This document shows, piece after piece, positions 18,513-34,351 of a stretch of DNA of 34,351 nt. Under the pieces are notes generated by a model that made no database searches, was not told where the DNA came from, and was given only the letters and a program-made list of their open reading frames with translations. This stretch comes from a virus (lineage: Duplodnaviria; Caudoviricetes). Position 1 is the stretch's first letter. Every line of letters begins with the position of its first letter. A program made the position numbers and the translations under genes. The stretch covers positions 1-34,351 of IMG/VR virus record IMGVR_UViG_3300025086_000112; one strand, 5' to 3'.

Positions 18513-18772
18513 GTTGGTTTGACGTAGTTAAAGAAGGACAATGCACTAGGGCTACAAAAAAAACATCATCTACTCGTAAGGGTAAGAAATGGATGAAGTG
18601 TGTTCCTAATGGTAAAGGCGGATATAAAAGAGTACATTGGGGTCAAAGTGGAGTAACTGTTTCAGGTAAAAGAGATGGTAAGAGAAGAAAATCCTTTAGA
18701 GCAAGACATAAATGTTCTACATGTAAAAGAAGTGATTACTCTGCTAGATGTATGGCTTGTAGAGATTGGTGA
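18509..18772 (+). CDS. Highly basic Cys-rich W-tag protein
   Basis: MSWFDVVKEG...KSFRARHKC...SARCMACRDW. Confidence 0.8.
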   Translation: MSWFDVVKEGQCTRATKKTSSTRKGKKWMKCVPNGKGGYKRVHWGQSGVTVSGKRDGKRRKSFRARHKCSTCKRSDYSARCMACRDW

Positions 18773-18776
18773 AATA

Positions 18777-20213
18777 ATGAAATTAGATAGTACGGATTTT
18801 ATGACTTCTATGGATATGGAATTATCCAAGACCTCTTTTCCGTATTTTTTTAAGAATGTATTAGGAATGATGTATCCTGAATATATGCAAGAATGGTTAG
18901 AGTTAATGCAAGGTACAGATAGAACTGTTATTGTTTGTAGTCGTGACCATGGGAAATCCGTATTCATGCACAGTTGGGTAGTATGGAATCTTGTGTTTCA
19001 AGAGCCACCTTTTCAAATGTTATACATATCTTCTAATCAAAAACAGACTTTAGTACATATGCGTGAAATTGATAAATATTTTAATCTTCCACAATTAAAA
19101 AAATTCAGACCTTCTAGGGGTTGGGCTATCGGTAATATTCAATTAACAAATGGTAACGCAATTTTAGAACGTTCTGTTGGTTCGCAAATTAGGGGACTTC
19201 ATCCTCAAGAAATTATTATTGACGACCCTTTGAAAGAGTTTAGTTTATCGGGTATTCAAAGAGTTACAGATTGGTTCTTTGGAGATATGATACCGACATT
19301 GCATCATACTGCAAGTTTGAGAATGATTGGTACTCCTTTTACATATACTGATATATTTTCACAGTTAGAAGAGAATGATGCCTATACTGTTAGAAAATAT
19401 CCATGCTTAAATTCAATGAATAAACCTCTTTGGCCTGAAAGATGGGATTATGATGCATTAATGCAAAGAAAATCGGAAATAGGGTCATTAAAATTTACTA
19501 GAGAGTATTTATGCATACCAGTTTCAACTGGAACTGCACTTTTTGACCCTGATTATGTGAATAAATGTAAAAATAAAGAATATGTGTTAAAATTAGGCCA
19601 TCGTAAAGATAAAGGATACAAATATTACGTTGGAGTTGACCCTGCTATCTCTACTGATGGAGATTATAATGTAATTGTTGTTTTAGAAGTAGATGAAGAG
19701 AAAAATAAAACAATTGTTCATGTTGATAGAGCAAAAAATGTTGAATTTAGAGAAAATATTGAAAAAATAAGAATAATAGGGCAGGTTTTTGAGCCTGAGC
19801 AGATATTATATGAAACAAATACCTTCGCTAAGGCATTTACACAAGAATTACGCAGTTTAACTGATATGAACATTAAAGATTTTAACACAACAAGGAAAAA
19901 GAAACAAGAAATCATATTAAATCTACAAATGAACATAGAAAATGGCAAAATCAACTTTCCTTATGGTGATAATAACAGTAGGAGTATGACTACGGCATTG
20001 ATTGAAGAATTATCCATGTTTTCTATAACTGAATCCGGTAGGTTTGAGGGTGTAGGTGCGCACGATGACTTAGTTATGGGTCTAGCATTAGCAAATGCCG
20101 CCACACAATCGCCTACTGACTCCTTTATACTGTTAGATGACCTCGGAGTGTTTGACGCACCGCAAAAGTCTCCTATAAACATAAACACAGGATTGATGGG
20201 ATTAAATTTTTAA
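18777..20213 (+). CDS. terL: Terminase large subunit
   Basis: Walker A SRDHGKS, Walker B IIIDD, coupling motif GTP, RNase H-like GVDPA and HDDLVM. Confidence 0.95.
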   Translation: MKLDSTDFMTSMDMELSKTSFPYFFKNVLGMMYPEYMQEWLELMQGTDRTVIVCSRDHGKSVFMHSWVVWNLVFQEPPFQMLYISSNQKQTLVHMREIDKYFNLPQLKKFRPSRGWAIGNIQLTNGNAILERSVGSQIRGLHPQEIIIDDPLKEFSLSGIQRVTDWFFGDMIPTLHHTASLRMIGTPFTYTDIFSQLEENDAYTVRKYPCLNSMNKPLWPERWDYDALMQRKSEIGSLKFTREYLCIPVSTGTALFDPDYVNKCKNKEYVLKLGHRKDKGYKYYVGVDPAISTDGDYNVIVVLEVDEEKNKTIVHVDRAKNVEFRENIEKIRIIGQVFEPEQILYETNTFAKAFTQELRSLTDMNIKDFNTTRKKKQEIILNLQMNIENGKINFPYGDNNSRSMTTALIEELSMFSITESGRFEGVGAHDDLVMGLALANAATQSPTDSFILLDDLGVFDAPQKSPININTGLMGLNF

Positions 20214-20229
20214 AAGAGAGGTAAATATT

Positions 20230-21597
20230 ATGGCGACTCCTAGTTCTGAACAATTACAAGCACTAACTAACAAAGTAAAAGAGGTAGAAGAACTCACTGC
20301 TGAACAACGCCAACTAGAACAAGATATGGAATTAGAAGCCAAGATGTTATGGCTTGATGGAAGGGCTTTATCGAACCATAACGATTTAGTTAAGGACTTT
20401 GCAAAGGATTTCAATATGTCTTATACAAAAGCAGATAGAATTTTAGATTTATCATTGAAAGAATATACAATAGAGAATAAAAATATTCCTGATTTAGTAA
20501 AGGACATGAGAATGTTCAGAAGAACTCTCAAGGGTGAAAAAAGATTAGATATGAGTAAATCTATTGATAATTTGATAGATGCTTATGCTGACCACTTAGA
20601 TAAGAGCATTGATAAAATTTATTGGGCTAGTCCGTATAAATCTGTAATTAAAGATATGACTTGTTCAGAATCTCAGATAATTAAACTTAGTAAAATTCAA
20701 GATATAGATACTAAAAGACAGGTTATAGACTCTCTTTGTAAGTATTGGGAAAATAAGTTAGAAATAAAAGATATGCCTTTAAATAAACAATATATTTCTA
20801 TTAGTAAGGAAATGACAGCAGCGAAAAAAGATTTTAAGAGAATTATAAAATCTCAAAGTTCTACAAAGGGCATTAAGAAAAGAATTAAAGAAAATATTTT
20901 GAAATCTGTTTGTGAATCACCGGGAATATCTTCTAGAGAGATACATGAGGCATTACCTGATAATCTTAAGAAAATGTCTTCTCCTCAAATAATTTCTAAA
21001 TTAGCAATTAGTCAAAATATTACTAATGTAAATGGTGCTTATTATAAGATAAATGATGATATTAAGAAAAATGTTTGGGCTTATACTGCTGCGTTTATAG
21101 ACTCTGATGGGTATATTACTATGGATAGAAATAATAATCCTAGAGTTGGTTTAGTTGCCACAGGGGAAAGAGGTAAGGCTTTCATGTTAGAGTTGCATAA
21201 ATGTTTAGGTATGGGAAGATTACATTTAGACCAAAAATCCCCTCAAGATACTAGGCCAGTGAATAGATTAAATTTTTACTCTCAAAAAGATGTGCATGAT
21301 TTATTGACTAAATGTAGGCCACATTTTAGAATGAAAGGTCCAAATGCAGATATATTATTAGAGTTAGTTAGAATTAAAAAAGGATTTAAAAAACAGCCTT
21401 GGGCTAAAGGTAGAATGGGTGAATTATTTAAATTAATGAAATACCATAATCATAGGGATAATGTAAACTTTGACTTTTCTGCCTTTGATATTGATTTAGA
21501 TTCTATAAGTAAACTAGAGGAAAATTCTAAAATGAGTTGGATGGATAAGTTAGAGAGAGATGATGCTTTAAATCTGATAGGAGTAAATAACACATAA
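20230..21597 (+). CDS. Protein with long helical N-terminus, HTH-like segment and C-terminal LAGLIDADG endonuclease-like domain
   Basis: YTAAFIDSDGYI LAGLIDADG helix followed by typical GxG and L.PH...K elements; PGISSREIHEAL wHTH-like. Confidence 0.75.
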   Translation: MATPSSEQLQALTNKVKEVEELTAEQRQLEQDMELEAKMLWLDGRALSNHNDLVKDFAKDFNMSYTKADRILDLSLKEYTIENKNIPDLVKDMRMFRRTLKGEKRLDMSKSIDNLIDAYADHLDKSIDKIYWASPYKSVIKDMTCSESQIIKLSKIQDIDTKRQVIDSLCKYWENKLEIKDMPLNKQYISISKEMTAAKKDFKRIIKSQSSTKGIKKRIKENILKSVCESPGISSREIHEALPDNLKKMSSPQIISKLAISQNITNVNGAYYKINDDIKKNVWAYTAAFIDSDGYITMDRNNNPRVGLVATGERGKAFMLELHKCLGMGRLHLDQKSPQDTRPVNRLNFYSQKDVHDLLTKCRPHFRMKGPNADILLELVRIKKGFKKQPWAKGRMGELFKLMKYHNHRDNVNFDFSAFDIDLDSISKLEENSKMSWMDKLERDDALNLIGVNNT

Positions 21598-21652
21598 AGG
21601 AACTTTAATATGTGTTTGGGAAATCGGATAATTAATAATGGGGGGATAAAAT

Positions 21653-23299
21653 ATGGTAGAAGAGAAAAGAAGATTTAGTATAGCAAATCTATTTAGAAGA
21701 ACAACGCCAAGACCTGCTGACCGCAAGGTGTTTAATCCGGGTATTCAGGAAAAAGATAATTCCTATATGTTAACTGCTCCTATTATCTACCATATAGCAA
21801 ATCAATCTATAATAGTTAGAACGTGTGTTACACAATTAAAAAATGAAATATTTAGAAGAGGTTATATTTGGGAAGAAAAGTTTGTTGCTAAGTGTGATGA
21901 CTGTTGTAAAGAACATAAAACTCCAACACTCGAATGTGTAGATTGTGGTTCTACAAATCTATCTAAACCTAACCGTGACCAACTAAAATATGCTTTATCA
22001 TTCATGGAAGGTTATGTCAATAAATCTGAACAATTGTTTATTGATGTGCTTAAAGAGTTAGAAGACGATTTGAATATAATGGATGATGGCTATTTAGTAT
22101 TGGTTAAGGAATATTTCTTAGACAATGATTCAGAAATAATGATGCACCGCATCAAAGAAATATACCGAGGCGACCCTGTTGGTATGCATATTTATGCAGA
22201 TGAATTAGGTGAAAGAGGTACAGAGGGATTTACTTGTTTAAGGCATAGGGATTTTATTAGTGATACTCCCGTAGCGTCTTGCCCGAATTGTGGCGCAACA
22301 GAATTATACCCTATACATTATGTTAATAGAGTAAATGGTGAAGAACAATATTTCTTAGAAGGAGAAGTATTACACTTTAGTAAATATACTCCTAGTAGAT
22401 TATATGGTCTATCGCCATTAATTACTTTATGGAATAGTGTAACAACACTTATTGCTATGGATAATTATATTAATTCATCATACACTAAGGCAAGAATGCC
22501 TAGAGGATTACTTGCAGTACAGACTAGAAATATAGAATCTATGAAATCTTTTTGGAAAGGTGTAAAAGAAAAGATGGAACAAGACCCTCATTTTATACCT
22601 GTAATGGGTATTGAATCAGAAGGTGGTAAAGGTTCTATTGAATGGATTAAGTTTATGGATAGCCTAAAAGAAATGGATTATGTTTCAGTCAAAGATGATT
22701 TGAGAGATAGAGTTTCAGGTTTCTATGGTGTAAGTAAAATATTTATGGCTGACAATTCTTCTAGTGGTGGATTGAATAATGAAGGTATGCAAATACTTGT
22801 TACTAATAGAGCAGTAGAAATGGCTCAGACTATTTGGAATAATTATGTATTTCCTTTTGTAACAAAGGAGTTTGGAATTACCGATTGGGTTCTAAAACTT
22901 CCACCATCGGAAGAAGAAGATGAAGTTGCTAAACTAAGAAAAAGAGAACTTGAAGTTAATATTGCTGCATCAATTAAAAATTTAGGATTTGAAATAGATA
23001 TGGATGATGAAGGTAGGTTCTCTTATAGCAAGCCTGAACCAAAACCTGAACAAGAAAGTGCAGGTGGAAATCAAGAAGAAAAGGTCGAGTTAGACCCGTA
23101 TGCAGGTACAAATATTGATGCAAGTCAATTAGGACAAATGCAAGAAGAGATGATGAATCAAGGTAAGAAACAAGAGAACCCTGCTACAACTAGAAATAAA
23201 CCTAGTATGGATAGTGGACCTGATAAAAGATTTAGTGGTTTACCTGAAGCAGCCGGAAATCAAAATGTTGATAAAAGAACCGAAAGAAGGGTAGGTTAG
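21653..23299 (+). CDS. Portal protein with Zn-ribbon insertions
   Basis: Position after TerL; YGLSPL, PRGLL, DMDY...R..V...YGV portal-type motifs; CDDC..CVDC and CLRH..CPNC inserts. Confidence 0.88.
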   Translation: MVEEKRRFSIANLFRRTTPRPADRKVFNPGIQEKDNSYMLTAPIIYHIANQSIIVRTCVTQLKNEIFRRGYIWEEKFVAKCDDCCKEHKTPTLECVDCGSTNLSKPNRDQLKYALSFMEGYVNKSEQLFIDVLKELEDDLNIMDDGYLVLVKEYFLDNDSEIMMHRIKEIYRGDPVGMHIYADELGERGTEGFTCLRHRDFISDTPVASCPNCGATELYPIHYVNRVNGEEQYFLEGEVLHFSKYTPSRLYGLSPLITLWNSVTTLIAMDNYINSSYTKARMPRGLLAVQTRNIESMKSFWKGVKEKMEQDPHFIPVMGIESEGGKGSIEWIKFMDSLKEMDYVSVKDDLRDRVSGFYGVSKIFMADNSSSGGLNNEGMQILVTNRAVEMAQTIWNNYVFPFVTKEFGITDWVLKLPPSEEEDEVAKLRKRELEVNIAASIKNLGFEIDMDDEGRFSYSKPEPKPEQESAGGNQEEKVELDPYAGTNIDASQLGQMQEEMMNQGKKQENPATTRNKPSMDSGPDKRFSGLPEAAGNQNVDKRTERRVG

Positions 23300-23342
23300 T
23301 GCCGGAGTTGTTATTCTAGCATATTTAAAAAAAGGTGATTAA

Positions 23343-23555
23343 ATGACTGAAAAAAGTGTAAGAGAATTAGAAAGGGAATTAGCAGATGCAAGGGCAAAAG
23401 TGTATAATGCACGTAAGGTAGAAGTGAATAGAGATTTAGATGCAGTAGGTATTGATTTGTCTAGAACAGTAGAAAAGAAAATTCCTAACAGTAATGATAT
23501 TCCTGACGTAATTTTAATGCCAAAAAGAAAAAGAAATTCTGAAAACAAGTGGTAA
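23343..23555 (+). CDS. Small hypothetical protein
   Basis: GGTGA RBS; 70 aa. Confidence 0.75.
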   Translation: MTEKSVRELERELADARAKVYNARKVEVNRDLDAVGIDLSRTVEKKIPNSNDIPDVILMPKRKRNSENKW

Positions 23556-23557
23556 GC

Positions 23558-24907
23558 GTGTCTATATTATTAAAAGCAGATATTTACGGGCATAAAGAGC
23601 CTATGGCTAAAACTGCTTTTGTATTAGACCAAATTAAAAAAACATTTTCTCCTAAAGTTAAAGATTTACTATCTAGTAAAGTACCTGATAATTTTGTAAA
23701 TAATTTAGAAAATGTTGTTAGAGTTACTAATGAAGGTTGGAAAAATAAACTTAGGCAATCTCTATCTGATGATTTGATGACCGCTAGTGGTGGATTTAAA
23801 CCATTAGGTTCTGAAAATTTTACTGAAGAAGGTGAACCATCAAAACCTAAAAAAATAGATATGAGTAAATTATTTGTAGCAATAACTTCTCATCGTAAAG
23901 TGTTTAAACAGATTCTAAAAATTAAACAAGATAATGCTGCTATGTTTTTATTAGCGGGTATGTCTGATGATATGCGTTCAGAAGAAAATCAACAACAATT
24001 AGATAATTTTGTAGAAGATTTAGAAGAAGGTTCAGATGAAAAGGCTATCTATGATGCGTTTGTAGCCGATGAAAATATATTCAATAAATTAGAAACTGCT
24101 ATATCTACACTTGATAAATTAGAAGACCAATTATCTAGAAAAGAAAGAGGGTCGTCTTCAAGTTATTCTTTTATTCCAACATTGACTAATCTACTCAATA
24201 AATATGGTAAAGATTCTAGAATAGAAAATTACAGAGGAGAATTAGATATATTACAAGGTGAATCTAAGTTATTTTCTCAAAAAAGTATATTTAAGTTTTT
24301 AGATAAATACGAAAAAGGTAATCATTCTGCTAGATTACTAGAAGTATTAAATCAAGAATATTCCGGTAAAACAGGAATAGAATTACTTAAAGAAATATTT
24401 ACTAAAGAGGGATTTAAATTAGAAGAAATAAAAGTTGGAGATACAAAACGATTAAAAGAATTTATCAACTTAAGTTATAGAAAAGTAGCAACACAAATTA
24501 AACAAGCAATGAATCCTGATGCTACTAAATCAGCAGTGAAGGTGTTCACACAAATGAAAGAATCTAAGATTATTGACTATGCTGATATTTTAGAACTAAG
24601 ACTTGGAGATTTATTAGATGATAAAGAGGCTAAGGAATCTTATTACTTGACAGAACCCGACCCTATGTTTGATGAAGAAGGAATGCCTGAAAACATTAGT
24701 ATAGGTGTAGCAGATATACAAAATGAGGATTATCGTATGGAGTTAAAAAGAACTACTGAATTATATGCATTTATGTATTATTTAGCAGAATTAAGGGAAA
24801 TCTCTTTAGATAAGTCGTTCTTACGAAATGATGTACATACTGTTGAAGTTGAGTCTTTGCCTGAAAAGTTTGCTATATTAAAAGAAGTTATGGGTGATTT
24901 AGAATGA
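23558..24907 (+). CDS. Hypothetical head-module protein
   Basis: ~449 aa, begins (M)SILLKAD; start could be 23549. Confidence 0.8.
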   Translation: MSILLKADIYGHKEPMAKTAFVLDQIKKTFSPKVKDLLSSKVPDNFVNNLENVVRVTNEGWKNKLRQSLSDDLMTASGGFKPLGSENFTEEGEPSKPKKIDMSKLFVAITSHRKVFKQILKIKQDNAAMFLLAGMSDDMRSEENQQQLDNFVEDLEEGSDEKAIYDAFVADENIFNKLETAISTLDKLEDQLSRKERGSSSSYSFIPTLTNLLNKYGKDSRIENYRGELDILQGESKLFSQKSIFKFLDKYEKGNHSARLLEVLNQEYSGKTGIELLKEIFTKEGFKLEEIKVGDTKRLKEFINLSYRKVATQIKQAMNPDATKSAVKVFTQMKESKIIDYADILELRLGDLLDDKEAKESYYLTEPDPMFDEEGMPENISIGVADIQNEDYRMELKRTTELYAFMYYLAELREISLDKSFLRNDVHTVEVESLPEKFAILKEVMGDLE

Positions 24908-25290
24908 GTTGGGAAGATATATTAAAAAGAAAACTAACTGTTATGGAGGCAGTTGAAGAAATAAATGACGTTTTATCAGGATATAAAAATGTAGAAATAG
25001 AATCTACTCGACAATTAATTGATGGCTACCGTAACCAAGAAATAAAAAATATTTATGATAATTTTTTCTATGACGATGACGAAGCACCTAAACCAAATAC
25101 TAATACATATTATATTCAATGTAATGTAGGAAATTATACAGGAATATTATTTGCTACTTATTTAGATGACAATGACAATGAAGAAATTGACAAGTTTTTG
25201 AGAAGAGTAATGGAATTATCTTTTAATGATAAGTTAGAAGATGCTAAAGATTTTTTGACACCTCTGAATGATGATTGGATGGAAGAGTGA
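24904..25290 (+). CDS. W-tag acidic protein
   Basis: MSWEDILKRK. Confidence 0.8.
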   Translation: MSWEDILKRKLTVMEAVEEINDVLSGYKNVEIESTRQLIDGYRNQEIKNIYDNFFYDDDEAPKPNTNTYYIQCNVGNYTGILFATYLDDNDNEEIDKFLRRVMELSFNDKLEDAKDFLTPLNDDWMEE

Positions 25291-25296
25291 TTTAGA

Positions 25297-25629
25297 ATGA
25301 GTTGGCAATATACACTTCAAAAGGCTGATAGTGGTTTATTGGAAAAACTAGAACCTAAAGAAAAAAAGAAATTGAAGAAATTACTTCAATCTACTCAACC
25401 TTCTGAATATTTTGGTCAAGACTTAACTAAACTATCTACTCTTATAGATGAGATGAAGAAAGTTGAATTAATTAAAAGTGATAAGAAACTAACTAAAAAA
25501 TTAAATGGGTTCGATGAAAAGAACTTAAGTATTGTAGCGTCAGCAGCAGAACTAAGGAAGGATTACGAGACTTTGTATAATCAGTTGCGAAGTATGGTGT
25601 ATCCCAGTAAAAAAGGTGATTTGAAATGA
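25297..25629 (+). CDS. W-tag helical protein
   Basis: MSWQYTLQKAD. Confidence 0.8.
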   Translation: MSWQYTLQKADSGLLEKLEPKEKKKLKKLLQSTQPSEYFGQDLTKLSTLIDEMKKVELIKSDKKLTKKLNGFDEKNLSIVASAAELRKDYETLYNQLRSMVYPSKKGDLK

Positions 25630-25853
25630 GTGAACAAAATGAAATGCTTATGCTAATGAAAGAGTTAGTTGATAAAGTAAAGGCACTAGAAGATACAGTA
25701 TATAGACAAGATAATTTGTTAATGAAATCAGGATTTGTAGTTTCTACATCTCCTAAACCCGCTATCGTTAATGGTGCAACTCCATCAAGTGATGTAATTT
25801 CTAAAATGGATTGGGATGATATTCATAAGATAGTAGAGAGAATAGAAGGGTGA
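25626..25853 (+). CDS. Small coiled-coil protein resembling scaffold C-terminus
   Basis: Ends SKMDWDDIHKIVERIEG, similar to scaffold end SSMSWGDIHNLARKF. Confidence 0.75.
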   Translation: MSEQNEMLMLMKELVDKVKALEDTVYRQDNLLMKSGFVVSTSPKPAIVNGATPSSDVISKMDWDDIHKIVERIEG

Positions 25854-25858
25854 ATATC

Positions 25859-26617
25859 ATGCCGGAAAAAGTAACAAGAGAAGAAAAGGCAATTGAATTA
25901 GCAATATTAAAAGCAAAAGAAGTTTTGGCTGAATTTAATGACGGAACTACTGTTGCTAATGACCAAGATGTTATGGGTGAAGAAGTAAAATTAAAAACTC
26001 CTAAGAAAAATCCTGCTGAAGAAAAGATACCAAATCCTACTGGTGAAGAAGGATATGGCTACGTTGGTAAATCAGTAATGAAAGAAGGAAATCCTTTTTT
26101 AGATGATGACAGAGATAAAGAAACTCAAATGAGAATTAGAGAGTTAGAGAAAGATTTAGATGATGTTAATACTGAATTAGAAGAATTAGAAATAACTGGT
26201 TCAGATAAAAATTCTGCGGGATTTGATAAGGTACAAGGTAGAAAGCAGACAAGACTATTAGAAGACGAAAAAAGATTAACTCAACAGATTGGTGATTTAT
26301 ACGATTCTTTGGGTAAAGCAATTATGTTAAAGAGACTATTAACAGTAGCAAAAGGATTAGATTTGGTTAGAAACTTAGAAATGGATAGTATAGCAAAAGG
26401 AGAACTAGAGGATTTGGATGCTCAGTTTGTAGAGGCATTTGAAAGATTCAATTCTAGCCCTAAAAAAGACTCTGATTTCGCTAGATATGAAAAAGAATAT
26501 TCAGAACTAAAAGCACTAGTCAAAAAATTAGGTCTAGAAGGCACAACTTATATGGATGCTGAACATGGTGGCCGTGCTGAAATGCAAAGAAAATATGGAT
26601 TTAGTCTACACGAATAG
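25859..26617 (+). CDS. Acidic coiled-coil protein (possible core/scaffold accessory)
   Basis: E/K-rich, multiple hydrophobic-x-K-(A/S/G) sites. Confidence 0.75.
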   Translation: MPEKVTREEKAIELAILKAKEVLAEFNDGTTVANDQDVMGEEVKLKTPKKNPAEEKIPNPTGEEGYGYVGKSVMKEGNPFLDDDRDKETQMRIRELEKDLDDVNTELEELEITGSDKNSAGFDKVQGRKQTRLLEDEKRLTQQIGDLYDSLGKAIMLKRLLTVAKGLDLVRNLEMDSIAKGELEDLDAQFVEAFERFNSSPKKDSDFARYEKEYSELKALVKKLGLEGTTYMDAEHGGRAEMQRKYGFSLHE

Positions 26618-26626
26618 AGTGGTTGA

Positions 26627-29179
26627 ATGTCAATTTCAGGCGTAGTATTTGAAAAGAAGAAAGACCTTCTAACAAAAAGAGTGTTAGACTTTTTTGAACG
26701 AACACGATTTTCGTATTTGTCAGCACTAGAAGACCCGAAAGAATACAATAAAAAATGGAAAAATACTGTAAAGTCTATACGAACACAATTTGATTCTTTA
26801 GATGCTTTTACAGGACTACTAAAGAAACACTTAGATGAGGATATTTTATTCGATGAGAAGGCAGAAGATGCATCTTCCATGCAAGCAAGAAAATTATATG
26901 AGGCTGTCAAATCATTGAGATTTGAGTCTAAAGAAATAAGTGACCCGTTTGCAGAACAGTTAGGTGATAATGTAGTAGATACATTATTATCTAATGATAG
27001 TGTATATGCTGCATTTGTACATTATGCCTTAAGAGCGCATAATATTCCTTTACCTTCAGCAGCGTGGGAAAAGCATAATCTTCGCCCTGATGAAATTACT
27101 CAAGGTGCTATGGGATTAGATTTAGAATCTAAGGATATTCCATTATATATTTCTGAACATTATGGTGAGAATAAAGACACTAAAAGAATTAAATCTAAGT
27201 TTAATAGTATCTTGTCCCTACTAAAAAAAGTATTTTTAGAAGAATATACCAATGTACAATGGAATAAGTTAGTTGATATTAATATTAAAAAATCTGACGA
27301 TACTAAATCAGAAGAAGAAAAGGCAGATATTAATTTTGTAATTCCAAATAAACCTATGTACAGAATATTTGAATTAAACGATATGGAACAATTAAAAGGT
27401 TTTAGTGGTGAATATGTTGTTCAAGAAAAATATGATGGGATGAGAGTTCAATTACATAAGATAGATGGTAAGGTAAAAATATATTCTTATAACCAAAAAG
27501 ATATTACTGATAAATGTTCTGAACAAGTAGAACAATTAAATAAAAAACATTTTGGAGATTGTATATTAGATGGGGAATTAATGTTATTTAGAGGTGAAGA
27601 ACCTTTACACCGAGCATCTGTAATTAATTATATGTTCAAGAAACCCGTAGATGGATTGAAACTTAGACTTCATGTATTTGATATCATGAGACATGAGGAA
27701 AGAGATTTAATGGATGAACCACTAAGAGAGAGAATCAATATTTTAATGTATCAATATTCACAACATTCTTCCGAAGATTTAGCATTCCCATCTAAAAAAG
27801 ATACTAGAATAGCAGATTCTATTAAAGAGGTAGGTACTTATTCTGAAACTATAATGCAATTACCTGCATCAGAAGGTGTAGTAATTAAAGATATAGAATC
27901 TACTTATCAGATAGGTAGTAGAAAAAATCCTAAATGGGTTAAGTGGAAAAAGTTTGTTGATTTAGATGTTGTAGTATTAGATTCTAAGAAAACTAAGAGT
28001 AATTTATATTCTTATACTATTGGTATTGGACCTGTGAGTGCAGAGCAATCAAGAAAATACAAAACTACGGAATTAAAAGATAAAGCATATATTCCTGTTG
28101 GGAAGGCGTTGAATACCAAAGAATCTGTTGAGGTTGGTGAAATAGTTAGGGTAAAGGTTGATGAAGTAAAGAAAACTAAAGAAGGATTTAGTTTGTATTC
28201 TGCTAAAGTAATTGAAATACCTGAAGTTACTGAATCTGATAAATTAGCAACTTTAGAATTATTATCTGATAAAACTAAAAAATCTATTTGGGAAGATTTA
28301 GATAAGCCATTTAAGTATAGATTGAAAGGTGTCAAAAAGATGTATATTACTGATGATATACATGGTGAAGCGGAAATACTATTGAAATCTGATTTAGATG
28401 GATTTACTATTATGGGTTTCAGTGGTGACAATTTAATGGAGAAAAAAGCATTATATGATATTGATGTTTGGAAAGAAGATTTAAAACAAGCAATAAAAAG
28501 TATGCGTTCTGAATTAAGATTATCAATAAAGAATAAACTATTAGATATGGATGAACCTGTTAGTTTTGAACAAATAGTAGAGTTTGTTAAAGAACATCAT
28601 ATGGATAAGTTTGAAAGTACTGCTTTTGATTCAGACTTAAAAAGATTAAAGAAATGGTTAATTAGACAAGAAGATATTGTTTATAATAAAACAGAAGATA
28701 ATTTTGTTGCTAATAATGATACAATTGAAAAGCAACCAAAAACTAATCCTAAGCAAGCAAATTTTTTAATTCAAAGAAGAGATGACAAAAATTTAGATTT
28801 TATTATTGAGACAGCAGAAAAAAAGATGGCTTGGTTGTTTGATATAGAAACAACTTCCGATGTTTATAACTTATTTGGTAAATCAGGTAAGTTTCCTGCT
28901 AAAATAAGTTTATCAGGTATTAAACAGGGTAAAGTAATTGATAGTGGTAAGGTAATATTAGGAGTACAGAAAGACGGTTATCATGAGTATAAATTAGAAG
29001 GTGATAAGTTTGATACTAGATTACACGTTAGAGTTGTACCTTTAGATGGTAAAGATACTTGGATTACATGGACTGGTAAAAAACAAACTATGTTAGATAC
29101 TAAAGAAGATGAAGGAGTATGGGATATTACCCTTGACAGGTATAAAAAATTAGACTTACCTGAATCTGAAACCGCTTAG
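26627..29179 (+). CDS. lig: ATP-dependent DNA ligase with N- and C-terminal extensions
   Basis: Motif I EKYDGMR, III LDGEL, IIIa VFDI, IV EGVVIK, V WVKWK, then OB-fold region. Confidence 0.9.
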   Translation: MSISGVVFEKKKDLLTKRVLDFFERTRFSYLSALEDPKEYNKKWKNTVKSIRTQFDSLDAFTGLLKKHLDEDILFDEKAEDASSMQARKLYEAVKSLRFESKEISDPFAEQLGDNVVDTLLSNDSVYAAFVHYALRAHNIPLPSAAWEKHNLRPDEITQGAMGLDLESKDIPLYISEHYGENKDTKRIKSKFNSILSLLKKVFLEEYTNVQWNKLVDINIKKSDDTKSEEEKADINFVIPNKPMYRIFELNDMEQLKGFSGEYVVQEKYDGMRVQLHKIDGKVKIYSYNQKDITDKCSEQVEQLNKKHFGDCILDGELMLFRGEEPLHRASVINYMFKKPVDGLKLRLHVFDIMRHEERDLMDEPLRERINILMYQYSQHSSEDLAFPSKKDTRIADSIKEVGTYSETIMQLPASEGVVIKDIESTYQIGSRKNPKWVKWKKFVDLDVVVLDSKKTKSNLYSYTIGIGPVSAEQSRKYKTTELKDKAYIPVGKALNTKESVEVGEIVRVKVDEVKKTKEGFSLYSAKVIEIPEVTESDKLATLELLSDKTKKSIWEDLDKPFKYRLKGVKKMYITDDIHGEAEILLKSDLDGFTIMGFSGDNLMEKKALYDIDVWKEDLKQAIKSMRSELRLSIKNKLLDMDEPVSFEQIVEFVKEHHMDKFESTAFDSDLKRLKKWLIRQEDIVYNKTEDNFVANNDTIEKQPKTNPKQANFLIQRRDDKNLDFIIETAEKKMAWLFDIETTSDVYNLFGKSGKFPAKISLSGIKQGKVIDSGKVILGVQKDGYHEYKLEGDKFDTRLHVRVVPLDGKDTWITWTGKKQTMLDTKEDEGVWDITLDRYKKLDLPESETA

Positions 29180-29211
29180 TTAATATAGTCGTTGAAAAAA
29201 ACCTATTGCTA

Positions 29212-30411
29212 ATGCTGTCTGCACCAATGCGTCTTGTTAATCAAGGTGTGCGTGATTTTAGTATTCTAAAGTCAGATGATTTAATTATTGGTGGCTATGC
29301 TTCAATAGAAATGATAGATAAGCAAAATGATTTAATTACTCTTAAAGCATTAGAAGAGGCTGTTGAAGGTTTTATGGTTAATAAGAAATTTAGAAATGTA
29401 ATGTCTAACCATTCTAATGTTCAAGTAGGAGAAGTAATTGATTCTTATAGAGATAAAAATGGTTTAGTACATAAAACTCATGTGGATGATGTTGGATTTT
29501 ATGTTGTTATCAAATTGAGAGATGATATTGAAAAGGCAAAGGAAATATCTAGAAATATTAGAAAAGGAACATTACGTTCTTTTAGCATAGGAGGTCAGGC
29601 TATTTCTAAAAGAAGCCGTAAATCAAGTGATTTAGGTGAATATAATGAAATAGATGGTCTTGAATTACACGAAGTCACAATTTGCGAAAAGGGAATTAAC
29701 CCTGAAGCAAAATTTGATATATTAAAGGAAGAAAAAGGTGAAAACAATATGACTGAAAAGTTAGAAAAAGCCCTTGCGGAGTTAAATGACTTGATGAAAC
29801 AAGTTAATTCTCTGAATAAGGAAGAAGAAACGATGGAAGCCCCAATGGAAGAGGACATGGAGTACATGGCTACTGACGAAGGGAAAGATGAAAAAGAAAT
29901 GATGGCATATGAAAAGGCTGATGATGAAGAAGCAAAAGCATTAGATGACCAAGATTTAACTCACATTGAAGCGGGTGAAGAAGTAGTAGTTAATGGAAAT
30001 CCAACTGCAACTCCTGCACCTCTAAAAGTATCTAAAGAATGGGATGCATCAGAATTTAAATCATTAGATTTATCTGCTGAAAATGTTGAAAAGGCTTATG
30101 AGCAATTTAAAGCAGAACAATTAGAAAAGATTGCTTATGAAAACCTATCAAAACAATTTGAATCAAGGTTTGTTTCAGAACAGGCTGTAAGAAAGTCTGC
30201 TAACGAGAGAGCAGAATATGATGCTCGTACAGAAGTAGCAGCATTAAAAGAAGAGTTTGCTGAACTACGCAAATCATTATCTGCTAAAGATACTGAAATA
30301 GCAAAAGCAAAAGAAGTTTCGTTTGGATTACCTGAAGGTTTCCCTGCAACATCAGAAGAGTTATCTTCTATGAGTTGGGGCGATATTCATAATCTAGCGA
30401 GGAAGTTTTAG
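29212..30411 (+). CDS. HK97-family prohead protease fused to scaffold
   Basis: IGGYAS...DKQND, NH...VG (His), SFSIGG (Ser), EVTIC..GIN; acidic coiled-coil C-half; TTAATATA TATA-like box upstream. Confidence 0.92.
   Translation: MLSAPMRLVNQGVRDFSILKSDDLIIGGYASIEMIDKQNDLITLKALEEAVEGFMVNKKFRNVMSNHSNVQVGEVIDSYRDKNGLVHKTHVDDVGFYVVIKLRDDIEKAKEISRNIRKGTLRSFSIGGQAISKRSRKSSDLGEYNEIDGLELHEVTICEKGINPEAKFDILKEEKGENNMTEKLEKALAELNDLMKQVNSLNKEEETMEAPMEEDMEYMATDEGKDEKEMMAYEKADDEEAKALDDQDLTHIEAGEEVVVNGNPTATPAPLKVSKEWDASEFKSLDLSAENVEKAYEQFKAEQLEKIAYENLSKQFESRFVSEQAVRKSANERAEYDARTEVAALKEEFAELRKSLSAKDTEIAKAKEVSFGLPEGFPATSEELSSMSWGDIHNLARKF
29749..30411 (+). CDS. Nested in-frame scaffold protein (internal start)
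   Basis: AAAGGTGA RBS before in-frame ATG (MTEKLEKALAEL) at the domain boundary. Confidence 0.55.
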   Translation: MTEKLEKALAELNDLMKQVNSLNKEEETMEAPMEEDMEYMATDEGKDEKEMMAYEKADDEEAKALDDQDLTHIEAGEEVVVNGNPTATPAPLKVSKEWDASEFKSLDLSAENVEKAYEQFKAEQLEKIAYENLSKQFESRFVSEQAVRKSANERAEYDARTEVAALKEEFAELRKSLSAKDTEIAKAKEVSFGLPEGFPATSEELSSMSWGDIHNLARKF

Positions 30412-30423
30412 GAGTGAGAAAAG

Positions 30424-31800
30424 ATGAGTGGATACACAAACACAATTAAAGATTTAGAAGCCGCAACCTATGGATTAACTGGTCCTGCCGGAAATGCTCT
30501 ATTAAAGAGTTCAGGTGTTGTCGGTGGATTCGGAACGCCCCACGATGCTGCATCAAACCCGTTTAGTGCAGCAAGCGGATTGGGAGATTTATACAATGTT
30601 CTTTACGGACAGAAAGTATGGTCAATGTTGAATCAAGAGGTTAACCCTCTTTCAATTCTAGCAAAAAGACCTTACACATCATCAGGATGGAGAGTTCTAA
30701 AGAGCCGACCTACTGGTGGTAGTGGTTCTGCGTTTGGAACAGGAACAACTGCTGTTGCTGCAAACACTGCTGATTTATCTACACCTAGAGTAGACCAAAT
30801 TGGTGGAGTAGAAGAGAATGCAACATTAGATGGTGCAAATGGATTTAGACCACTTTCACCTGAATACGCTAAACTTTTCGTAAGTCCAAAAACTGTTGCT
30901 CATTTGTTTGAGTTCTCAGAACTTGGTATGGAATTGGCTGCTATTGATGATGGTGTCGGAGATATTCGTGCAATCGTTAGAGAAGACATGGGTAAGCATC
31001 ATGCTGAAACACAAAGTAAAATGCTAGTTATGCCTTACGAGTCATATGATGATGGTACAGCAACAAACATTGAGAGAAACTATACTTCTTTGATGAAGAT
31101 TGTTTCTTCTGCGGGTGAAATCGCTGCTATGTATAACGCTAACCTATTGACTACTGGTGCAAACAATGGAGATAACTCCGCAGTTGTTGCAGATGTAGTT
31201 AATCTGTTTGGTACAACAAGAAGTGTTACTATTAGTAGTAACGCAGCAACAGGTGTTGCTTCTTTCTTGGATGCAGAGGTTGACTTTGGAGATGGATATG
31301 CAGCAGGTGATGCTAGAGTTCTAACTCTAACTATGATTAATAGTATGATTAGAAGAATCCGTCAAAACGGTGGAAATCCAAAATGTATTCTAACAGGATA
31401 CGATACTATTCAGCACATTGCTGACTTACTACAAAGCCAAGAAAGATTTATGGATAGGAAAGAGATTGTTCCTACACATAACGGTGTAAAAGGTGCAAAG
31501 GGTCAAGAAGTTGGATTTAGAGTAGCAACATACTTTGATATCCCTCTAATCCCTGCAAAAGATATGCCTTCAACTGGTAGTAATTCAACAAATGAATTGA
31601 GTGATATGCTGTTCTTAGATACAGACCACATGTGGCTATCTGTTATGAAACCAACCCAATACTTTGAGGATGGAATTACTAACGGAAACCCATTTGGTGT
31701 AGGTAAACTTGGAAACCAAGGAATGTACAGAACAATGGGTGAAACTTGCTGTTCTTTCTTCAAGGGTCAAGGTAAGATTACTAACATTAAGAGTGCTTAG
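30424..31800 (+). CDS. Major capsid protein (HK97 fold inferred)
   Basis: Directly after protease/scaffold; 458 aa, G/A-rich; FRVATYFDIPLI and LFLDT C-terminal patterns. Confidence 0.88.
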   Translation: MSGYTNTIKDLEAATYGLTGPAGNALLKSSGVVGGFGTPHDAASNPFSAASGLGDLYNVLYGQKVWSMLNQEVNPLSILAKRPYTSSGWRVLKSRPTGGSGSAFGTGTTAVAANTADLSTPRVDQIGGVEENATLDGANGFRPLSPEYAKLFVSPKTVAHLFEFSELGMELAAIDDGVGDIRAIVREDMGKHHAETQSKMLVMPYESYDDGTATNIERNYTSLMKIVSSAGEIAAMYNANLLTTGANNGDNSAVVADVVNLFGTTRSVTISSNAATGVASFLDAEVDFGDGYAAGDARVLTLTMINSMIRRIRQNGGNPKCILTGYDTIQHIADLLQSQERFMDRKEIVPTHNGVKGAKGQEVGFRVATYFDIPLIPAKDMPSTGSNSTNELSDMLFLDTDHMWLSVMKPTQYFEDGITNGNPFGVGKLGNQGMYRTMGETCCSFFKGQGKITNIKSA

Positions 31801-32178: not shown

Positions 32179-32239
32179 CCATTATAATACCGTAGTCTTA
32201 TTCCCTTCTTTACTGGGGGGAATGAGATTACTATAATGG
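32179..32239 (+). promoter_or_regulatory. Long hairpin after capsid genes
   Basis: CCATTATA..GTAGTCTTATTCCCTTC / GGGGGGAATGAGATTAC-TATAATGG with G-U pairs; 3' arm reaches the next RBS. Confidence 0.65.
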
Positions 32240-33032: not shown

Positions 33033-33452
33033 ATGCCAAGTTTAGAAGATGATACAAGATTAGTAATGACGATTTTATTTGTTGGCGCAGTAAGTGGCGT
33101 GAATATTTATTTTTATACCCAATATGGGTTTATGTTTCCATATGCAGGTTATACCCATGCATTATTGTTTGGGATATTAACCATAGGAGGTATAATGATA
33201 CTAAAGGCAATATTCGATTTAACTTTATTTGATAGAATAGAAGATGTGTTATTACAAAGAAAGATAGATGCATATTGGGCTAGAAAACAAAAAGAAGAAG
33301 AAAATCGTAAAAGAGTTAGGGATACTATGCGACAGTATGACCAAACATATGGGAATAACTTCATACAAAATCCCGTACCTGCATTTGGTCAGACATATCA
33401 ACAACCCGTTGACAATACTATAAGCCCTACATTCTTAACTATGAATGAGTGA
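33033..33452 (+). CDS. Membrane protein (2 TM) with coiled-coil tail
   Basis: Hydrophobic LVMTILFVGAVSGVNIYFY and ALLFGILTIGGIMILKAIF. Confidence 0.8.
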   Translation: MPSLEDDTRLVMTILFVGAVSGVNIYFYTQYGFMFPYAGYTHALLFGILTIGGIMILKAIFDLTLFDRIEDVLLQRKIDAYWARKQKEEENRKRVRDTMRQYDQTYGNNFIQNPVPAFGQTYQQPVDNTISPTFLTMNE

Positions 33453-33457
33453 GGTAT

Positions 33458-33682
33458 ATGGTTTCTGAATTATTAATGGGATTTGATGAATCCACATTAG
33501 CATATGATTTACAGAGAGCGCATTCTGCTGATATATGGTTCTTAAGAACTAGATTCTTTCTTTGGTCATCTGCTGCTTGTATTACTAGTTTTTTTGTCGG
33601 ACATGCACTTCCTTTTTGGGGAATAAATCTTTATAATTCTACTTGGAACGCATTCATTAATTGGTGGCATCATTTGTGGTGA
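33458..33682 (+). CDS. Small membrane protein
   Basis: FFLWSSAACITSFFVGHALPFWGI hydrophobic segment; GAGGT RBS. Confidence 0.75.
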   Translation: MVSELLMGFDESTLAYDLQRAHSADIWFLRTRFFLWSSAACITSFFVGHALPFWGINLYNSTWNAFINWWHHLW

Positions 33683-33688
33683 TTAATT

Positions 33689-34351
33689 ATGTCAGTAATG
33701 GCGGGCTTTGTTATATTAGTAGCAGAGGGTGTAGCAAAAATGTGGAACAGAATGCATTCTATTCCTTTTGGTGTTTATGGTGCAACAAAGGTAGGAAAAA
33801 CAACATTACATCATCAATTAAGAACTAGAGGAGAAGTACCTGAAATTAAGAAAAGAACTGTTGGGCGAGAAAAACCGAGTAGAAAATATGTTAAATTAGA
33901 TGGTGATGCACACACAGTTAAGACAGCAGATGTAGGAGGAGAAACAGTATTTTGGTCTGAGTGGATTGGAGATATGAAAACTAGAAAAGTTAAGTATATC
34001 ATATTTATGATTGATGACAGACATATGGATAAACATTATGATATTGAGCAACAATTGTGTTGGACTTTTTTAGTTGATACAATATGTTCTCCTTATTGGG
34101 ATGCTATAAATAAAAAGGGTAGAAAAAAATCTCATGATTATCCAATAGCAGTAGGTATATGGGCTAACAAATACGATTTATGGAAAGACAAATATCCACA
34201 TAAAGGAGAAATTAAAGACCATCCAATATTTGAGACTTTTAAAAGTGGAATGACAAAATTAAATGAAAAGGGAATACCATGCTTCAAATATATAGTAAGT
34301 GCAAAATCAGATTCAGAAATGGTATATCGTGGCGTATTAACAATGATTAAA
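33689..34351 (+). CDS. Ras-superfamily small GTPase, Arf/Sar1-like (runs off window end)
   Basis: Manual translation: G1 GATKVGKTT, G2 RTVG, G3 DVGGE, G4 NKYD, G5 SAK; N-terminal hydrophobic/amphipathic helix; GGTGA RBS. Confidence 0.88.
   Translation, partial: MSVMAGFVILVAEGVAKMWNRMHSIPFGVYGATKVGKTTLHHQLRTRGEVPEIKKRTVGREKPSRKYVKLDGDAHTVKTADVGGETVFWSEWIGDMKTRKVKYIIFMIDDRHMDKHYDIEQQLCWTFLVDTICSPYWDAINKKGRKKSHDYPIAVGIWANKYDLWKDKYPHKGEIKDHPIFETFKSGMTKLNEKGIPCFKYIVSAKSDSEMVYRGVLTMIK

Follow-up and report, generated by a model that had tools for sequence, protein, structure and literature searches.

A five-gene cassette built around a small GTPase is conserved in magroviruses, and its first three genes lie at the end of the window analysed here, i.e., the whole 34,351-nucleotide stretch of the IMG/VR virus record IMGVR_UViG_3300025086_000112 (~34 kb; ~32% GC; 36% complete by the record's own estimate). 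The cassette encodes, in order, a protein with two transmembrane (TM) helices, a protein with one TM helix, a Ras-superfamily GTPase that leans towards the Arf family, a Cys/His protein, and a Gln-rich protein. In two groups of tailed viruses, no scorable locus lacks any part of it. It also occurs in large group-D-like elements that have no detectable head-tail genes and carry an SH1-type ATPase.

By its gene content, the window comes from a tailed magrovirus. A head-tail block outside the cassette occupies positions 18675–31800 of the plus strand, as recognised by Pfam and PHROG matches. It comprises genes for terminase (starting at 18675), portal (21653), an 850-aa ATP-dependent DNA ligase between the portal region and the protease (26627–29179), prohead protease (29206), and an HK97-type capsid (30424), all on the plus strand. 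HK97 capsid, protease, portal, terminase, and a ligase inside the block are the features that define Magrovirales, and a ligase embedded in the structural block is a trait of magrovirus groups A and B (PMC5434244). A complete 99-kb relative also has the split PolB reported for group B (PMC5434244). By extension from the same source, the host would be Marine Group II (Poseidoniales). By abundance, magroviruses have been placed third among marine virus groups, behind SAR11 phages and cyanophages (PMC5434244). An inverted repeat (ataataccgtagtcttattccc...gggggaatgagattactataat; 32183–32215) lies between the post-capsid gene and the next gene, and is possibly a terminator or processing hairpin.

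The three cassette genes within the window are co-oriented on the plus strand and tightly packed. Gene 1 (33033–33452) encodes a 139-aa protein with two predicted TM helices (residues ~10–28 and 43–61, with hydropathy peaks at residues 10 and 43), together with a charged helical segment, a low-complexity tail, and a conserved terminal S/T-F-L; it has no Pfam or PHROG match. Gene 2 (33458–33682) encodes 74 aa from an ATG at which the family alignment also starts. Its product has one predicted TM helix (~33–51; a single hydropathy peak at 33), a conserved AYDLQRAHSAD(I/V)WFLR segment, and an aromatic C-terminal helix. Gene 3, the GTPase gene (33689–34351, plus strand), runs off the end of the window. 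Genes 4 and 5, past the window end, encode a 225-aa Cys/His protein and a 232-aa Gln/Met-rich low-complexity protein with a conserved amphipathic-looking terminal segment. In relatives, neck, terminator, and tail-tube genes are found 3′ of the cassette. The gene directly after the cassette (L001:12156–13883) differs in length among close relatives, from ~235 to 1326 aa, making this a hypervariable slot 5′ of the neck gene.

Linkage of these genes was assessed from two directions. The window's own group (clade 1) comprises 82 loci, 79 of which contain the whole GTPase ORF; they include near-copies, and the number of distinct GTPases is 54. The 2-TM, 1-TM, Cys/His, and Gln-rich partners are present in 77/77, 77/77, 73/73, and 71/71 of the loci with enough flank, respectively. 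Since the linkage HMMs came from these same loci, a second anchor was placed on the capsid gene. Among the 80 capsid-anchored loci, the five cassette genes were found in 60/60, 59/59, 48/48, 42/42, and 42/42 of those with room for them. The first-pass annotation had proposed an operon of the GTPase with two membrane genes in the late region. Its coupling to the 2-TM and 1-TM genes is conserved in both directions, and in clade 1 the cassette does sit between the capsid and the neck and tail-tube genes; the unit is nevertheless one of five genes rather than three, two of them beyond the window.

A second tailed clade (clade 2) yielded 289 confirmed stretches, of which the best 80 were kept. Among these best 80 of 289 stretches, the four partners are present in 76/76, 79/79, 80/80, and 80/80 scorable loci, and the cassette has the same gene order and lies ~8 kb before the terminase gene. 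The clade consists of tailed genomes of ~100–108 kb, and capsid and terminase were found in both complete genomes tested. Clades 1 and 2 have homologous genes for the GTPase (99.95%), the Cys/His protein (96.5%), and the Gln-rich protein (89.6%), arranged in one order. Homology between their TM genes was undetected (0.3–4%), and the equivalence of these genes is based on position and hydropathy. In all 80 of the best 80 of 289 clade-2 loci (e.g., L100:12347–12613) and in the group-D-like genomes G013 and G014, the cassette is followed by a sixth gene, for a small 2-TM protein, which is absent from the window's clade.

The GTPase gene encodes 221 of 223 aa within the window; a 100%-identical locus supplies the full 223-aa protein, showing that the window lacks the last two residues and the stop codon. 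A structure model of the protein has a small-GTPase fold (pLDDT 74.8), with switch I poorly modelled (below pLDDT 50). Homologue alignment places G1 (P-loop GATKVGKT, residues 31–38) at 33779–33802, G2 (RTVG, with T57) at 33854–33865, G3 (DVGGE, residues 81–85) at 33929–33943, G4 (NKYD, residues 160–163) at 34166–34177, and G5 (SAK, residues 204–206) at 34298–34306. G1, G3, G4, and G5 follow one another along a G domain of six strands whose fold matches Ras, Rab, and Arf chains. Residues G31, G36–T39, T57, G59, D81, G83, G84, N160, K161, D163, and S204–K206 are invariant in all 50 aligned homologues. Out of 608 candidates, 359 homologues were retained at E ≤ 0.001. Synonymous to non-synonymous codon differences are 55:10, 23:5, and 25:4 against three close relatives, and 56:51 and 75:47 against two more distant ones; the gene is under purifying selection. 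The 359 homologues, the synonymous excess, and the modelled fold together argue that this ORF has not arisen by chance. We therefore regard 33689–34351 as a genuine Ras-superfamily small GTPase gene, for whose product GTP binding and hydrolysis are predicted from the motifs. Some of the homologues are labelled "GTPase SAR1 family protein" by JGI, and a search of annotated phage records with the GTPase gave no match.

Two features of the GTPase suggest contact with a membrane. The model has a helix over residues 2–22 (33692–33757, from the model and hydrophobic-moment analysis) that is built in two parts: residues 2–12 are uniformly hydrophobic (moment 0.25) and residues 13–23 are amphipathic (moment 0.66), with an invariant-like E13 at their junction. 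The amphipathic half beats shuffled sequences in 42 of the 54 distinct clade-1 sequences, and its signal is weak in clade 2 (significant in 18/68, from the best 80 of 289 stretches). The helix falls short of a full TM span, and an N-terminal TM anchor of the SRβ type is not apparent, a 19-residue hydropathy of ≥1.6 being reached in 1/54 clade-1 and 0/68 clade-2 sequences (best 80 of 289 stretches). The second feature is a basic/aromatic insert before β5 (W137...KKGRKK...P152; 34097–34144), recognised by alignment, model, and charge. The 20 residues before β5 have a median net charge of +4 in clade 1 (n = 54) and +8 in clade 2 (n = 69, best 80 of 289 stretches). In the topology of G domains, an insert before β5 is on the same face as the N-terminus, and the insert may form a membrane-facing patch.

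How Arf-like this GTPase is depends on the method used. With Pfam, the window protein reaches no GTPase family at its cut-off; its best match is SRPRB (E = 5.5e-4), with no Arf hit at E ≤ 0.01, and a second-clade member misses the Arf (PF00025) cut-off of 22.3 bits with 13.7 bits. A profile of 50 homologues compared with the PDB ranked 8oun first (E = 0.013), followed by Arl8 and KRas, while Foldseek with the GTPase model ranked Ras/Rab first. Full structural alignment placed Arf6 at the top (Z 14.8; rmsd 3.0; 160 aligned residues), tied within 1 Z with SRβ (14.4), Asgard Rag (14.3), and Gαi (14.2), and with Sar1 at 13.5. With this single model, structure alone does not tell Arf from SRβ, Rag, or Gα. 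The nearest non-viral Atlas clusters look mostly bacterial, and 17–67% of their members carry an Arf label (from profile and protein-language-model features). Arf was the top family and its Pfam cut-off was passed in 7 of the 12 non-magrovirus outgroup relatives scanned, with two others leaning towards Roc/Ras. On account of its fold, its N-terminal helix, and these nearest relatives that pass Pfam Arf, the viral protein leans towards being Arf-like, short of a demonstrated member of the Arf family. The defining Arf trait is a nucleotide-driven interswitch toggle that frees the N-terminal helix (bioRxiv 10.1101/2024.02.28.582541).

The claims of the first-pass annotation about this protein fared unevenly. 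All of G1–G5 are present as it described. Its Arf hallmarks (TVG, DVGG, and an amphipathic N-terminal helix) hold for the amphipathic part of the helix and for the general Arf leaning; TVG, however, is clade-specific, being replaced by RTxH in 69/69 second-clade sequences (from the best 80 of 289 stretches). The substitution of E for the catalytic Q is real in the window protein but not fixed. The last residue of the G3 motif is E in 45 and Q in 9 of the 54 distinct clade-1 sequences; it is Q in 36, E in 14, and D in 9 of 69 clade-2 sequences, with 10 unmatched (best 80 of 289 stretches), and H in four of five group-D-like proteins. Its statement that such GTPases are typical of eukaryotes and Asgard archaea is weakened by the mostly bacterial look of the nearest non-viral relatives.

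In the trees, the viral GTPases form one clade (support 100/98) apart from an outgroup of mostly bacterial Arf-like GTPases. The group-D-like sequences join tailed clade 2, with support of 97/93 in a 51-row tree and 87/82 in a 24-row tree. As monophyly of the tailed-virus GTPases was not rejected in the 24-row analysis (p-AU 0.18), transfer of the cassette between virion types is not shown by these trees. The nearest outgroup sequences (P0154, P0167, P0180, P0185, P0192, P0199, P0201, and L316) are Arf-like GTPases, probably prokaryotic, with hydrophobic N-termini, and pass Pfam Arf. The one 1.2-kb fragment of outgroup genomic context that was examined gave no evidence of a cassette, and scans for the genomic surroundings of P0130 and P0159 came back empty. 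A GTDB scan with clade-1 patterns (one genome per species), which leaves distant cellular homologues possible, returned two loci. Both come from a single Maricaulis MAG, where the genes around them on their contigs are viral in character; the same MAG has a third contig, of the clade-2 type (L082, L083, and L181). A host origin through this MAG was rejected, as three magrovirus contigs of two clades likely reflect binning contamination.

The cassette extends beyond tailed viruses. Magrovirus group D has been described as having PolB, thermosome, resolvase, and RNA polymerase A and no morphogenetic block, with its nature left open (PMC5434244), and a further study reports no capsid and an enrichment of its reads in the cell fraction (PMC10160649). 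Following up a third type of GTPase, we reached a 110-kb record that has the whole cassette next to the thermosome gene and also encodes PolB, resolvase, and RNA polymerase A′. With a conserved, independent 204-aa gene as the probe, we assembled a group-D-like set of 19 loci and examined 13 records. G002 and G008 have the PolB, thermosome, resolvase, and RNA polymerase A characteristic of group D; G013 and G014 have thermosome and resolvase, and a PolB match was not found in them. The GTPase is present in 10 of the 13 records, the three without it being shorter than 12 kb, and in all three complete direct-repeat genomes (128, 129, and 140 kb). HMMs of the tailed clades applied to the 10 GTPase-bearing records detected the 2-TM-type protein in 10/10, the Cys/His protein in 10/10, the Gln-rich protein in 4/10, and the small TM partner in 8/10 (E = 7e-5 to 8e-3). 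An extra gene is inserted before the GTPase in G013 and G014.

Virion genes of the tailed type were sought in the three complete group-D-like genomes. No terminase or portal family was detected, with a positive tailed control, and custom HMMs likewise had no hit at E ≤ 1; these covered terminase, protease, capsid, neck, terminator, and tube and, the terminase HMM apart, were derived from clade 1 alone. PHROG searches of 65 long ORFs from two of these genomes (G014 left out) yielded no accepted capsid, protease, or terminase. These absences come from sequence searches, and the genome search also missed PolB in a complete tailed genome. A PHROG "terminase" match on a 240-aa ATPase was rejected, as RefSeq puts the same label on the ATPase of SH1. 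A "portal" match that fell on a NUDIX stretch was also rejected, as were "tail fibre" and "major tail protein" matches to short stretches of two long G013 proteins.

A P-loop ATPase of 240–260 aa is encoded in all three complete group-D-like genomes. In a set of 50,697 phage records, the 240-aa ATPase matched SH1, HCIV-1, and HHIV-2 and no others (E = 2e-3 to 8e-3). Their records assign these viruses to Varidnaviria, Halopanivirales, and SH1 is a tailless halovirus with an inner membrane. HHalign aligns it with the packaging ATPases of these three viruses at 97.4% over 160 columns. Each complete genome has an FtsK/HerA-type packaging ATPase like that of Halopanivirales. A Halopanivirales-like virus would also have two major capsid proteins, each a single jelly-roll. 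For the group D capsid, comparisons with the PDB, PHROG, the Atlas, and SH1 VP4/VP7 were all blank, and two conserved capsid candidates of 204 and 314 aa had no profile match to VP4/VP7 (≤3.3%). Group D is likely to consist of large tailless inner-membrane viruses of marine archaea. We go no further than likely because no capsid was identified, G013 and G014 are without a PolB match, and the genome search can miss genes. The SH1-type ATPase and both capsid candidates are seen in G002 (L175:4985–12133), G001, G008, G013, and G014, and the same five records encode an Arg-rich protamine-like protein with a hydrophobic C-terminus. A lone archaeal-type RNA polymerase largest subunit of 1600 aa is encoded in G002 (L173:13377–18209) and at ~42–43 kb in G008. 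G013 (L211–L217) and G014 (L218–L224) are complete genomes of ~128 kb, the former with six or more genes for DNA methyltransferases and one for a fibre-like protein of 2989 aa.

The viral GTPase shares with the Arf family (Arf1, Arf6, Arl, Sar1, and SRβ) and Asgard ArfR a small G domain, a DxGG G3 motif, and an N-terminal helix that is in part amphipathic. It differs in its 11–18% identity, its scores below Pfam cut-offs, a longer two-part N-terminal helix, the lack of Gly2, a basic insert before β5, a catalytic Q that is often E, D, or H, and TM and Cys/His partners of its own. The nearest non-viral sequences, the mostly bacterial Arf-like GTPases with hydrophobic N-termini, are sister to the viral clade. 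The zinc finger of ArfGAPs has the motif CxxC-x16-CxxC-x4-R. In the viral Cys/His partner, only C79, C114, and H117 (spacing 32) are conserved across clades, with no invariant Arg, and the ArfGAP motif is absent. The model of this partner has a confident core (pLDDT ~90 at residues 41–130) with no fold match above Z 4.2 and ArfGAP not listed, and gives no evidence of a new fold. ArvA, an archaeal small GTPase that has a predicted amphipathic helix at its N-terminus and is paired with a Zn protein, drives vesicle formation (PMC10927574). The viral cassette resembles the ArvA/ArvB/ArvC (OapABC) system of Haloferax and other archaea in its archaeal setting and in an operon that pairs an N-helix GTPase with a Zn-type partner. 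It differs in being viral and in its extra TM genes, and no cassette partner matches DUF2073 (ArvB) or DUF2072 (ArvC) in Pfam.

We tentatively favour, at somewhat less than even confidence, the reading that the cassette encodes a GTP-switched machine at the inner face of the host membrane, most likely one that times or drives progeny release by membrane rupture. The cassette would be expressed late together with the structural genes, and the 2-TM and 1-TM proteins would be embedded in the host membrane, to serve as an anchor or to form lesions. GTP binding would free the N-terminal helix, which together with the basic/aromatic insert would bind the membrane, as in Arf1 and Sar1. As the catalytic Q is often absent, a regulator would be needed, and the Cys/His protein may act on the GTPase cycle in a GAP- or effector-like manner. 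The Gln-rich protein, through its terminal amphipathic segment, may scaffold the complex, which once assembled would deform or rupture the membrane and let the particles out. RNA-library contigs (with no DNA control or strand information) contain parts of the 2-TM gene in 3/4 runs and of the GTPase gene in 1/4, and a promoter scan was at chance (23 against 29.9 expected) with a bacterial consensus. The cassette lies after the capsid gene in clade 1, ~8 kb before the terminase gene in clade 2, and beside the thermosome gene in most group-D-like records; with its placement relative to the structural genes varying from group to group, late timing is only presumed.

The host envelope is the most likely target because the cassette moves as a unit, is never missing, combines membrane proteins with a switch, and is shared across different packaging machinery. 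Its presence in elements without detectable head-tail genes adds support for a membrane-remodelling or egress role, which we infer. The same genomes argue against the GTPase being a head or tail assembly factor with the TM genes as unrelated neighbours, as does its movement as a unit with those genes; the clade-1 location between capsid and neck/tail-tube genes would suit such a factor, which we consider highly improbable. Remodelling of the host membrane at an earlier stage, into a membrane-bound replication or assembly compartment with no role in release, would draw on the same membrane features and linkage. A scaffold or condensate would be a fitting role for the low-complexity Gln/Met-rich partner, the thermosome gene adjoins the cassette in most group-D-like records, and magroviruses carry large replication gene sets (PMC5434244). 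We nevertheless hold this explanation to be unlikely, as both tailed clades place the cassette among or just before morphogenesis genes, outside the replication block.

Release is favoured because every such virus needs this step and, in the consulted portion of PMC11706807, no gene is named for it in magroviruses. Small, fast-diverging TM genes in late regions are shared with holin-type lysis cassettes, from which the viral cassette differs in that no endolysin is seen in it, and we know of no GTPase that is part of a holin system. Tailed viruses normally lyse their hosts with a holin-like protein alone, and a five-gene GTPase machine may therefore do something else. The consulted portion of one study names holins for Adrikavirales and no lysis genes for magroviruses proper (PMC11706807). 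A different task might be to alter host surface or physiology through a GTP switch (superinfection exclusion, a block of division or secretion, or counter-defence). The cassette is shared by unrelated kinds of particle whose host is inferred to be the same, the fast-diverging TM partners fit host-contact proteins, and the structural tie of SRβ (Z 14.4) with Arf6 hints at a translocon-related target. Accessory host-altering genes are usually patchy in distribution, whereas this cassette is never missing in scorable loci, making such a role quite unlikely. Non-lytic egress, in which virions or genomes bud in host-membrane vesicles in the manner of ArvA or Sar1, has the ArvA precedent (PMC10927574), the two-part N-terminal helix, and the enrichment of group D reads in the cell fraction (PMC10160649) in its favour. 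We judge it very unlikely, given a cassette without a coat-like protein, partners without an ArvB- or ArvC-type Pfam match, and tailed magroviruses that are found mostly in the free-virion fraction (PMC5434244).

The five-gene cassette is apparently undescribed in print. Compared with the published Magrovirales (PMC5434244; PMC10768690), the window virus has the familiar head-tail block with its embedded ligase, and PolB is split in a complete relative, as it is in group B. The cassette is unmentioned in the text of PMC10768690 and in the portions consulted of PMC5434244, PMC10160649, and PMC11706807. No paper pairing magroviruses with a GTPase was found in the literature, though an annotation elsewhere in print is possible. 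The consulted part of one review speculates only that viruses might exploit host ArvA (PMC10791045). The ligase in the block was already described for magroviruses; new here is the occurrence of the cassette in group-D-like elements that have an SH1-type ATPase and no detectable head-tail genes.

It is possible, if on balance doubtful, that viruses of two realms infecting Marine Group II, the tailed HK97 magroviruses and group D, share one self-contained Arf-like GTPase machine for egress, timed by GTP and equipped with anchors, a regulator, and a scaffold of its own, that opens or buds the host membrane, unlike holins, pyramids, or ESCRT. The cassette is a small, expressible candidate for how magroviruses leave their uncultured hosts, and the group D ATPase is a direct lead to tailless viruses rather than plasmids. 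If the proposed function is true, the cassette would give an example, from a prokaryotic virus, of membrane control in the style of Arf/Sar1, with a bearing on the origin of such GTPases.
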